Shown: positions 4,495 through 8,944, counted from the first letter of the stretch. The stretch is DNA of 64,000 nt from Pilimelia sp. (GCA_035634075.1 DASQDS010000794.1:6717-70716); one strand, 5' to 3'. Numbers and translations are program-made. Notes: a model not told the origin generated them from the sequence alone.

Positions 4495-6390
4495 ATGACG
4501 CGGCGGCGGGTTCGCACCATCACCGATTGCTACGCGCCCGCCGAGGTCCTGGACACCTCCCGGGAGAAGGGATCGGGTATTCCGGTCGCCCAGTTCGGGC
4601 AGCACGTCGCCGAGACGGCGATCTTCGAGGACTACGTCGCCTGCACGAACCAGGAACCGTTCCTGGCGGTCATGCTGCGCGCCAACCCACCGGACTGGAC
4701 CGACAAGGGCACCAAGAATGAGTACGCCGACTTCGTCAAAGCCCGGAATCCGCACGTCGACCGCGACGCGTTCTCCCATGCCACCACGAAATGGCCGGAT
4801 ATCGTCACGCACAACGGCCTCATCTGGCCTCCCGGCCTACCACTGCCAAGGCCGACGCTGTTGACGGGCGCGTTGGCCATGGGCGCCCGGGCGGCGGACC
4901 TGATGCCGCGGGGGCGTTTCGAGTACTACGAGATCAAGCCGGACTCCGACACGGGCCTCGAGGACGGCGTCGGCAAGCTGGCGGCCATCGAGCCGGTGCT
5001 GCGGGATTCACGGTTCCGCCTCAAGTACGTCGCGGGGACCACGTACCCCAGTCCCGCGCAGACAAGGGTCGACTTCCCGTACGACGGGGTATTCAAGAAG
5101 TTGGCACTGGATGTCATCCGGCGGGGCCGCCTCGCGCGCGTCCAGGTCTATCTCACGGTGCGGCGCGAGCGGCCGGGCCTGCTGCTCTACAAGCTCTGCG
5201 TCGAGCTCAAGCTGGAGGACGAGGACGAGGCGAACGCGCGCACCGTCGCCAAGGGCGTCGCGAAGCACCTCTTCGGCACGCTGATCGCGACGACGATGCC
5301 GGAGAAGTACCCGGAGACCACCGCGCTGCTCGGCGACCACAGTTTCGAGGGTGACCGCGTACCGCGGATCAAGTGCCGGTTCGACGTGGTCGACGCGCTG
5401 AAACCGTGGACCGGGCGCCTGTCCGAGACGATGTGGTCCCGCGGCCTGGCCTTCCCCGGCGAGACCTACTACGTCTGCTGCGACGAGAACTTCTACGCCA
5501 ACCTCGTCGGCCCGGCGTACCGCGGTCCGACGGCGGAGTCGCTGTGGCGCGAGCTCCGCACGCGCGCCCTGCTGTGGGCGGACGTGTACGGCGGCAAGCC
5601 GGCCGCCGGCCTCCTGGCGGAAGTGATCGTCAAGGCCGAGGACATCGCCCGGCTGGCGATGCAGGCGAACCCGGGCCTCAAACCGATGGCGGACCAGCTC
5701 GTGCGCTGGATAGCCGAGCACCCGTACGAGACCGTCGCCATCGTCATGCTTCCCCTCGTCCTCACCGCGGGTCTGGCGGTGGCCGCGGAGGCGGGACTGA
5801 TCGGCGGCGCCCTGCTGACCGGCGAGCTGACGGCCGGCGAGATGGCGATGGTGGGCGGGATGGGTCGGATGGCGGCCGGGCGGGTCATCACGACGCAGGC
5901 GTTGGGCCAGGAGGCGGCCCGGTACGCCGCCGAGGAGACGCTGCGGGCCGCCAGCCGGGAGATCGCCCGGCAGGGTGCGCGGGAGGCCACCAGGCAGGCG
6001 GGCGAACACATCGCGCGGCAGGTCGGCGGCACGGTGATCCCGTTCGGCCGGGCGGCGCAGCAACTCGGCAGCCTTGCCAAGGCCGCCTCGCTGCCGCTGG
6101 TCGGCGGCTCCGTGCTCATGGGTTACTCCGTGCAGGCGCGGGCCGCCACCAGCCCTTCCGGCGGCGGGCGCGCGGTGCCGGGCGTCGACCCGGCCGGGCT
6201 CATCGCCGACGACATGTCGCTGCTGTACCTCGTGCGGCCGCTCGCCAGTCCCACCACCGTCCAGCGCCTCGTGCCCGGCGCACTCGTCGACGTCAACCAG
6301 ATCGGCCAGACCACCATGGCGAACCTTCCGCCGACATACCCGCCGCGCCGCCAGGCGGCGTACTACCTCGGCCGCGTCACCGTCACCTGA
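4495..6390 (+). CDS. Hypothetical membrane-anchored protein, cassette gene A (about 631 aa; alternative GTG start at 4477)
   Basis: Long ORF with coding-like third-position GC bias. A hydrophobic Gly/Ala-rich segment (VAIVMLPLVLTAGLAVAAEAGLIGGALLTG..MAMVGGMGRMAAG, about nt 5728-5880) separates an N-terminal region of about 410 aa from an Ala/Arg/Glu-rich helical stretch and a C-terminal region of about 100 aa. I recognise no family. It lies 10 nt upstream of the next gene. Confidence 0.75.
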   Translation: MTRRRVRTITDCYAPAEVLDTSREKGSGIPVAQFGQHVAETAIFEDYVACTNQEPFLAVMLRANPPDWTDKGTKNEYADFVKARNPHVDRDAFSHATTKWPDIVTHNGLIWPPGLPLPRPTLLTGALAMGARAADLMPRGRFEYYEIKPDSDTGLEDGVGKLAAIEPVLRDSRFRLKYVAGTTYPSPAQTRVDFPYDGVFKKLALDVIRRGRLARVQVYLTVRRERPGLLLYKLCVELKLEDEDEANARTVAKGVAKHLFGTLIATTMPEKYPETTALLGDHSFEGDRVPRIKCRFDVVDALKPWTGRLSETMWSRGLAFPGETYYVCCDENFYANLVGPAYRGPTAESLWRELRTRALLWADVYGGKPAAGLLAEVIVKAEDIARLAMQANPGLKPMADQLVRWIAEHPYETVAIVMLPLVLTAGLAVAAEAGLIGGALLTGELTAGEMAMVGGMGRMAAGRVITTQALGQEAARYAAEETLRAASREIARQGAREATRQAGEHIARQVGGTVIPFGRAAQQLGSLAKAASLPLVGGSVLMGYSVQARAATSPSGGGRAVPGVDPAGLIADDMSLLYLVRPLASPTTVQRLVPGALVDVNQIGQTTMANLPPTYPPRRQAAYYLGRVTVT

Positions 6391-6400
6391 GGAGCGTGCG

Positions 6401-8869: not shown

Positions 8870-8916
8870 GTCGGGCGTCTCGCCTTCGTACGCGCGGTGC
8901 CGCCAACCGGCAGTCG

Positions 8917-8944
8917 CGCCGGGCAGGACCGGTCCTGCCCGGCG
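8917..8944 (+). terminator. Strong GC-rich hairpin (28-bp perfect palindrome) about 48 nt downstream of the cassette gene B stop
   Basis: The sequence cgccgggcaggaccggtcctgcccggcg is its own reverse complement, followed by tccttcctgtt. This is consistent with an intrinsic terminator closing the 4495-8869 operon. Confidence 0.5.

Follow-up and report, generated by a model that had tools for sequence, protein, structure and literature searches.

Two adjacent genes, here called A and B, lie near one end of a 64,000-nucleotide stretch of DNA (the window) from Pilimelia sp. (GCA_035634075.1, DASQDS010000794.1:6717-70716). They form a conserved, accessory two-gene module, in which B is the constant part and its partner, in this window A, changes from one genome to another. 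By exact protein match, the window comes from a contig of a metagenome-assembled member of this genus (Micromonosporaceae), so that some of its small local oddities may be related to the assembly.

The two-gene locus

Gene A is on the plus strand at 4495-6390 and encodes 631 aa counted from its ATG (GenBank HYN97324.1, "hypothetical protein"). An alternative GTG start at 4477 is possible; the homologues align from the ATG at 4495. The gene stops with TGA at 6388-6390, and the junction that follows it, read directly from the sequence, measures 10 nt (6391..6400, plus strand) and includes a GGAG at 6391-6394, 6 nt 5' of the start of gene B, ATG at 6401. Gene B extends over 6401-8869 on the same strand and encodes 822 aa (HYN97325.1, "type II secretion system protein GspG"). 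An earlier note on this DNA, made from the sequence alone, had described two tightly coupled genes with a 10-nt gap and a GGAG ribosome-binding site, and these coordinates bear it out.

Upstream, gene A diverges from narG, which is a genuine gene: its product gives a full-length match of 1305 bits to Escherichia coli NarG (1Q16). The intergenic region between narG (minus strand) and gene A (plus strand), at 4127..4494, is 368 bp long and has 64.7% GC, against 70.2% for the window, close to the 350 bp of lower GC content reported before. It presumably houses both promoters, those of narG and of gene A. No match to the sigma-70 consensus was found in 4127..4494, a consensus that is uninformative for an actinomycete.

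Downstream, the perfect 28-bp palindrome mentioned in the earlier note is indeed present at 8917-8944 (CGCCGGGCAGGACCGGTCCTGCCCGGCG), 47 nt past the stop codon of B, and is followed by the T-rich tail CCTTCCTGTT. The resulting hairpin (8916..8955, plus strand) is the sole terminator-like site in 4000-9700 and, with this tail, is most readily understood as the terminator of the operon.

Is the cassette a recent arrival? The earlier note had read it as an inserted accessory module, partly on the impression that it is less GC-rich than narG. The numbers speak otherwise: GC amounts to 70.5% in A, 68.8% in B and 70.6% in narG, and GC at third codon positions (GC3) is alike as well (0.92, 0.91 and 0.93, respectively). 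Since this composition is native and the palindrome is a terminator-like hairpin, neither is taken as evidence for recent insertion. The truncated protease gene that completed that picture is a weak candidate, described at the end of this text. The scanned window genes near the cassette include neither an integrase nor a transposase. The accessory part of the claim did survive, on the grounds of distribution given below.

Gene B and its conserved core

Gene B has 108 homologues, mostly full length and with 40-78% identity. A hydropathy scan of the protein found neither a transmembrane segment nor a hydrophobic segment anywhere, and there is no signal peptide. The AlphaFold2 (AF2) model has a predicted local distance difference test score (pLDDT) of 80.9 and a predicted template modelling score (pTM) of 0.67.

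From the conservation profile, the protein has a core of ∼600 aa (aa ∼120-705; 6758..8515, plus strand). The model of this core has long beta-hairpins, a conserved insertion of low confidence (aa 162-273) and a variable beta-sandwich (aa ∼380-486); its C-terminal part consists of long helices (aa 488-553) and of an alpha/beta domain with the motif HQAVEWEN...HPDPxHR. Among 105 homologues, the conserved blocks are aa ∼120-335 and ∼490-710, and the variable parts are the N-terminal helical domain and the beta-sandwich. Plasmids of Bacillus thuringiensis, Sinorhizobium and Tsukamurella encode distant B-like proteins whose alignment with B is confined to the core, with E values from 1e-53 to 1e-59; the C-terminal GspG-like domain of B is absent from them. 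It is therefore the core, and not the GspG-like domain, that defines the family.

The core has no match in Pfam, NCBIfam, PADLOC or PHROGs, and apart from the GspG-like domain the family profile finds nothing in the PDB. Foldseek searches of B against the PDB and BFVD likewise return the GspG domain only, all other matches having template modelling (TM) scores <0.15 and very large root-mean-square deviations (rmsd). Phage tail and adsorption proteins among these fold matches were rejected as noise (TM score <0.11, rmsd >20 Å). A phage origin of B was also rejected, given the empty tblastn search against 50,697 phage records and the missing PHROGs match. As for the literature, nothing relevant was found on T2SSG/PF08334 in connection with defence or phage, or on pseudopilins in connection with polymorphic toxins, and an actinobacterial defence-discovery preprint (10.1101/2025.01.08.631966) has no description of the B family.

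One region of the core stands apart. Residues 162-273 (6884-7219 in the window) are among the most conserved of the whole family, and they contain at the same time the longest stretch with pLDDT <50. High conservation together with so low a model confidence suggests an element that may be conformationally switchable or dependent on oligomerization. Within it, aa 205-227 (7013..7081, plus strand; AFNFNASAGGSYGPVSVSVSTGL) make up an amphipathic, Ser/Thr/Gly-rich segment resembling a beta-hairpin; hydrophobic and polar positions alternate in the family profile, conservation is high, and AF2 draws two short strands with low confidence. Further on, aa 246-266 are a strand-like segment with charged residues conserved at i/i+2. 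The earlier suggestion of a membrane-inserting segment in B thus finds a conserved amphipathic stretch to refer to; that this hairpin enters a membrane could be conjectured from its residue pattern.

The GspG-like domain and a misleading name

The name under which B is deposited comes from its C-terminal end, where a globular GspG-like domain occupies aa ∼715-800 (8543..8800, plus strand). PF08334 (T2SSG) matches aa 718-793 with an E value of 2.8e-14, and this is the sole family match in B. The statement that neither gene can be assigned to a family accordingly holds for A and for most of B, with the exception of this domain. Comparison with the PDB entries 3gn9, 4lw9 and 2kep gives E ∼3e-9 over 40 aligned residues, more than 50% of which are identical, and Foldseek returns 3gn9 with E 5e-5 and a TM score of 0.66 relative to the target. 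In common with GspG/EpsG/XcpT (PF08334; 3GN9, 4LW9, 3FU1, 2KEP), B possesses the globular pseudopilin domain with its GADG..GGEG loop, which we take to be the calcium-binding region of the 2009 EpsG structures.

However, the likeness goes no further. As B is devoid of hydrophobic segments, it has neither the class III (prepilin) signal peptide nor the hydrophobic alpha1-N helix that define pseudopilins. Its GspG-like part is C-terminal, starts at residue ∼715 and accounts for ∼80 of 822 residues of a protein predicted to be cytoplasmic. The domain is moreover dispensable, being absent from many members of the B family, and B itself resides in a Gram-positive genome. Against TIGR01710, the NCBIfam equivalog for GspG, B scores 46.3 bits, the cutoff being 88.85. 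Genes for a type II secretion system (T2SS) were found neither among the ten window genes scanned (10786-38624) nor in 12 homologous loci annotated with Pfam; the window neighbours of B are narG, a metallo-beta-lactamase (MBL) hydrolase, a histidine kinase, SpoIIE and STAS proteins.

B is not a pseudopilin, and its GenBank name "GspG" is a domain-level misannotation. The same label, "type II secretion system protein GspG", is attached to many full-length homologues in NCBI and UniRef (P0004, P0008, P0009, P0015, P0026, P0031 and P0055 in our set). The label rests on a C-terminal domain of ∼80 residues that falls under the equivalog cutoff, and the misannotation is systematic. Its effect is practical: on homologues from Micromonospora, Terrabacter, Nonomuraea, Catellatospora, Bacillus and Cohnella, it hides the family from surveys of defence systems and toxins.

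Gene A: a nuclease-like domain on a membrane protein

Gene A matches no Pfam or NCBIfam family at E<=1, and has no match in PADLOC or PHROGs and no sequence match in the PDB. A word-indexed profile search with the A-family alignment, including the Firmicute partners, returned the same 12 proteins again. Exhaustive HMMER, used instead, retrieved 362 representatives at E<=1e-3; of these, 57 also pass a threshold of E<=1e-30.

The core of the N-terminal domain (aa ∼30-235; 4582..5199, plus strand) has a signature of the PD-(D/E)xK type, made of E40, P101-D102, E143 and E146-I147-K148. Residues were counted in 160 aligned sequences, namely the representative matches listed plus the A homologues found earlier, and the key positions are nearly invariant: E40 in 108/108, D102 in 103/107, E146 in 141/144 and K148 in 143/143. 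What had been called a possible nuclease motif in A is therefore shared by more than 100 representatives. In the AF2 model the elements follow each other as helix (with E40), strand, strand (with D102), strand (with ExK), helix and strand, which is the canonical PD-(D/E)xK order; as in that superfamily, helix 1 contributes a Glu, a strand opens with PD, and the strand after it carries ExK and leads into a helix. In contrast to the superfamily, A has no hidden Markov model match to any Pfam nuclease family, and it carries a 30-residue insertion between both catalytic strands. From residues and predicted topology together we infer, with good support, that the domain is nuclease-like and of the PD-(D/E)xK type.

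Where else does this domain occur? In all ten of the PF13699 eCIS_core (DUF4157) proteins tested, it is the C-terminal part, with E values of ∼1e-11 to 1e-17. DUF4157/eCIS_core marks the toxins of extracellular contractile injection systems (eCIS), in which the toxin domain is C-terminal (Geller et al. 2021, PMC8213781). Its place at the C-terminus of eCIS_core proteins makes the N-terminal domain of A a member of a mobile pool of toxin domains, and profile comparison identifies it as homologous to eCIS toxin payloads. Unlike the eCIS toxins, A has no eCIS_core; its domain is N-terminal, and a transmembrane helix and a C-terminal domain follow. PF13699 is absent from A, from B and from the window genes scanned, and no contractile-injection genes were found among these window genes or in the Pfam-annotated homologue loci. 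The domain ties the module to the cargo of contractile injection systems, and may be of interest as an uncharacterised toxin of nuclease type.

The view of A as a membrane-anchored protein of about 631 aa is confirmed by one transmembrane helix, aa 413-431 (5731..5787, plus strand), with a value of 2.32 in a Kyte-Doolittle window of 19 residues. It is located mid-protein, not at the N-terminus, and an equivalent helix is present in most A-family partners scanned. A second, weaker hydrophobic stretch at aa ∼525-548 is scored as a segment in some homologues only. After the transmembrane helix comes a low-complexity region rich in Ala and Gly, and then a small beta domain (aa ∼570-631; 6202..6387, plus strand) with AF2 strands at 569-580 and 621-630, which ends in YLGRVTV and is conserved, Bacillus and Cohnella included.

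The A-B pair across genomes

The pairing of A with B is conserved. A adjoins B in 6/8 surveyed loci and in 14/79 genome loci, and the list of hosts is a varied one: Micromonospora sp. RP3T, M. avicenniae and M. endolithica, two species of Catellatospora, two Kineosporia, three Nonomuraea, Mycetocola and another Microbacteriaceae metagenome-assembled genome (MAG), Bacillus wiedmannii, Cohnella, two Paenibacillus, a Rhodospirillales MAG and a Methylococcaceae MAG. Hence, to the question in the earlier note of whether the two genes occur together outside this genome, the answer is yes, in Actinomycetota, Bacillota and MAGs of Pseudomonadota, and in three arrangements. The order is A→B in one clade of Micromonosporaceae, to which the window belongs, and B→A in the rest, except that the two genes converge on a single contig of 1 Mb. 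The adjacency therefore survives rearrangement, and its maintenance through rearrangement and across phyla is strong evidence for a functional coupling of A and B. The two proteins presumably interact directly.

The module is also rare. Taking one genome per species, 181 relatives of B were found among ∼185,000 species, i.e., ∼0.1%. The hosts belong to the Actinomycetota, the Bacillota, the Alpha-, Beta-, Gamma- and Deltaproteobacteria, the Acidobacteriota, Nitrospira, the Chloroflexota, the Cyanobacteria (on a plasmid) and the Bacteroidota. The flanks are non-syntenic even within genera: an all-against-all comparison of 763 flanking open reading frames (ORFs) from 83 loci found almost no sharing, and a copy of A with 82% identity, accompanied by its own B, is set in a wholly different context that lacks narG. 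No recurrent third gene emerged, and no Pfam family is present in more than four of 145 flanking proteins. With its patchy spread, plasmid copies and non-syntenic flanks, A-B is an accessory module.

The plasmid NZ_CP031306.1 of Natronorubrum bangense contains, at 572126-572350, a partial match (hit H13) to B aa ∼600-675, the region of HQAVEWEN. On account of this haloarchaeal plasmid match, the B-like core may extend to the Archaea.

Swappable partners

The partner of B is swappable, and B is nearly always accompanied by one. A crude gene caller recovered B in 69 loci; in 51 of these, an ORF of at least 180 aa on the same strand begins <200 nt downstream of B, and in four others such an ORF lies upstream. 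The partners sort into at least 11 families, which were kept apart under iterative search. In this sample, the A family has 16 members, an unannotated family of ∼455 aa has six, and a PLD-like family and one of ∼375 aa have five each, the latter with a predicted transmembrane helix in most members. Others are lipase-like alpha/beta hydrolases of the LCAT/PGAP1 type, one of them with a weak, sub-threshold deaminase-like match, trypsin-like peptidases, an Rv2525c-like hydrolase and further ones. Most partners have no signal peptide or transmembrane segment. Iterative jackhmmer searches with 65 partners revealed no shared adaptor domain, and the families stayed separate.

In Mesorhizobium sp. SCN 65-20 (L002/L003/L017), the partner (L002:10358-11260) has 300 aa and weak matches to YkuD (E 9e-4) and Tlde1 (E 0.09), both below the Pfam cutoffs; they suggest an effector of the peptidoglycan-directed type.

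The B family appears not to have been described before, and the module makes a credible case for a new family whose effector slot is modular. Candidate toxins of at least 11 families fill this slot, and several of these families are wholly unannotated.

What does the module do?

The explanation that we favour, tentatively and at somewhat less than an even chance, is an intracellular conflict module in which the constant protein B controls a toxic effector directed against the cell itself, with the logic of abortive infection. As B and most partners are without secretion signals, an intracellular system is the simplest reading. B would be the cytoplasmic, multidomain constant part, with its ∼600-aa core and, in the subfamily of the window, a GspG-like end. 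The partner would be the variable toxic effector, here the membrane-anchored A, with its N-terminal PD-(D/E)xK-type domain predicted to face the cytoplasm. B would bind the effector and either hold it inactive or switch it on. A trigger, most likely phage infection, would then alter the state of B; the effector would be released or activated, A would cut nucleic acid at the membrane, and the cell would stop growing or die, as in abortive infection. In this scheme, the nuclease activity of A, the nature of the trigger and the role in defence are presumed.

Modular anti-phage systems with swappable effectors are well represented by Lamassu (LmuB plus LmuA, with nuclease, lipase, protease or hydrolase heads), CBASS and Avs. 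The A-B module resembles them in having one large conserved protein coupled to an effector slot, and in its patchy, accessory spread; the slot holds PD-(D/E)xK-like, PLD-like, lipase-like, protease-like and transmembrane-containing proteins. It differs in that B has no recognised SMC, ABC, STAND or cyclase domain and no NTPase motif, in that the effector is a separate gene with no detectable shared adaptor domain, and in having no PADLOC match. Apart from the payload-type domain of A, the module has no homology to Lamassu, CBASS or Avs, or to the components of binary, Tc or eCIS toxins.

Several observations weigh against a conflict module of this kind. PADLOC-DB v2.0.0 contains no family that matches A or B at E<=1. 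The flanking genes are mostly ordinary metabolic or regulatory ones, and defence genes give a weak signal there: PADLOC, applied to 145 flanking proteins of ∼40 loci, hit DpdF once, a type IV restriction endonuclease (REase) once, mad1/mad6 twice, MkoA twice, PsyrT once and some kinase-type proteins, these being raw, uncorrected counts. No NTPase or other sensor or switch domain is recognised in B, and its core is conserved far beyond what is usual for a sensor engaged in an arms race. Some partners, the YkuD/Tlde1-like and the glycoside-hydrolase-like ones, look directed against the cell wall, which fits an exported toxin better. Finally, a whole-chain Foldseek search of A against the PDB gave nothing at E<=0.001, and since the AF2 model of A is a mediocre one (pLDDT 61), its nuclease assignment is argued rather than demonstrated. 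The earlier note had come to a related suggestion, an anti-phage or toxin-delivery system. Its support now comes from the architecture of swappable effectors, and not from the features that the note had listed; given the missing PADLOC match and the weak signal in the flanks, this suggestion keeps its conditional form.

Could B deliver its partner instead? Beta-barrel pore-formers and the translocation components of binary toxins, e.g., anthrax protective antigen and the aerolysin-type toxins, offer the model. B would be the binding and translocation part of a binary (AB-type) delivered toxin, and the partner would be an enzyme carried as cargo, a weapon against competitors or grazing eukaryotes; B would oligomerise and insert the hairpin of aa 205-227 into the target membrane, with the GspG-like domain as a binding module. 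We regard this as unlikely, yet several observations favour it. Binary, Tc, eCIS and type VI secretion system (T6SS) toxins are built on this plan, a large conserved component with exchangeable enzymes, and PLD-, lipase- and trypsin-like proteins, the Rv2525c-like hydrolase and the weakly YkuD/Tlde1-like protein resemble exported effectors. The N-terminal domain of A is an eCIS-type payload. The Ser/Thr-rich alternating hairpin of B, conserved, flanked by the i/i+2 segment and left unplaced by AF2, is what one can expect of a metastable pre-pore element; in addition, the conservation of B is unusually high, some partners seem to be aimed at the cell wall or at lipids, and the hosts are bacteria of soil and rhizosphere, which are well armed in this way. 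On the other hand, a signal peptide is missing from B and from most partners, no secretion, lysis or conserved immunity gene is linked to the pair, and the internal transmembrane helix of A is odd for a translocated cargo. B also has no sequence or fold similarity to these toxins, and the fold searches showed no likeness to a pore-former or translocase of solved structure.

Less probable again is an addiction or stress module resembling a toxin-antitoxin (TA) pair, with the partner as toxin and B as a large antitoxin or chaperone, which would mainly stabilise itself or the DNA that carries it and would have neither an anti-phage nor a delivery task of its own. The tight two-gene operon, the plasmid copies, the loci near integrases or transposases and the constancy of one gene beside a varying toxic one would all suit it. 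However, a single antitoxin of 820-1100 aa kept constant against at least 11 unrelated families of toxins would have no precedent; as a rule, an antitoxin varies together with its toxin. Most loci, besides, are chromosomal and have no mobile-element genes nearby. A housekeeping role in the envelope or in a pilus, with B as a real GspG-type component or an envelope maintenance factor, is effectively refuted and thus very improbable. The PF08334 match with its strong local similarity to EpsG and the wall- or lipid-active domains of several partners would be its arguments; they are countered by the missing prepilin signal and hydrophobic helix, the score below the NCBIfam cutoff, the many members with no GspG domain, the Gram-positive hosts, the occurrence in ∼0.1% of species in non-syntenic contexts and the lack of T2SS genes among the window genes scanned. 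The remaining probability belongs to some explanation beyond these four.

A bolder idea spans the conflict module and the delivered toxin, and we consider it less likely than not: B would be a new, phylum-spanning machine that operates with at least 11 toxic enzymes, either as an NTPase-free immune sensor or switch or as a self-translocating pore-former, and aa 162-273 would be its moving part. If the pore-former version were true, it would amount to a bacterial binary-toxin platform common to Gram-positives and Gram-negatives. If the module functions as proposed, it would be a new family of bacterial conflict systems present in many phyla; given that the B core is without recognisable homologues or a solved structure, the mechanism would be new to biochemistry.

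Individual loci in other genomes

Some loci are near an integrase, a nucleotidyltransferase (NTase)/HEPN pair, a TIR protein, DpdF, a type IV REase or MADS genes. In Bacillus wiedmannii (NUQO01000014.1, 1-8000; L001), the pair in B→A order is directly downstream of a tyrosine integrase, and in its vicinity are an NTP_transf_2/HEPN pair, a ThiF-like protein and a faintly PAPS-reductase-like protein. This setting resembles a defence or mobile island, unlike that of most other loci. On two JGI metagenome contigs (L011/L012), a TIR domain fused to beta-helix repeats (∼14640-16391) lies ∼4 kb from the B homologue, whose downstream partner has 465 aa and weak similarity to hemopexin.

Other features of the window

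Outside the module, the plus-strand ORF at 8897-9214 (CTSGFGV...YLLTAEHC) is what the earlier note had taken for a serine protease gene that lost both its beginning and everything beyond the catalytic His. Its product ends in ...YLLTAEHCGPVG (longer stretch, ...CTSGFGVRNATTGAGYLLTAEHCGPVG) before the stop codon. The resemblance to an S1 protease is at the level of the motif: in a pairwise comparison, alpha-lytic protease matches it weakly in the region of the catalytic His, with E 0.03. The ORF has no Pfam and no PDB match, and no GDSGG-type remainder of a protease was found in any forward frame. A protease remnant is plausible as a candidate.

Between this ORF and the next gene, the ∼450 bp at 9215-9663 have no ORF with a high-GC3 coding signature. 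This suggests a decayed or rearranged stretch; it could alternatively be an effect of the MAG assembly. A perfect 20-bp tandem duplication (TTACGCCGGCTCAGCGCAGC, twice) is found at 9634-9673 and overlaps the 3' end, in the stop-codon region, of the minus-strand ORF 9664-10752.

Farther along, a partner-switching signalling cluster occupies 11733-16289. It encodes a hybrid PAS histidine kinase with a receiver domain, a phosphatase of the SpoIIE type, a STAS anti-anti-sigma protein and an HATPase_c_2 anti-sigma kinase. On the minus strand, at 34225-38624, there is a Pnkp/Hen1 pair of RNA-repair genes: Pnkp has 922 aa with kinase, phosphoesterase and ligase domains (PF16542, E 1.5e-183), and Hen1 has 594 aa with a methyltransferase domain and PF12623.

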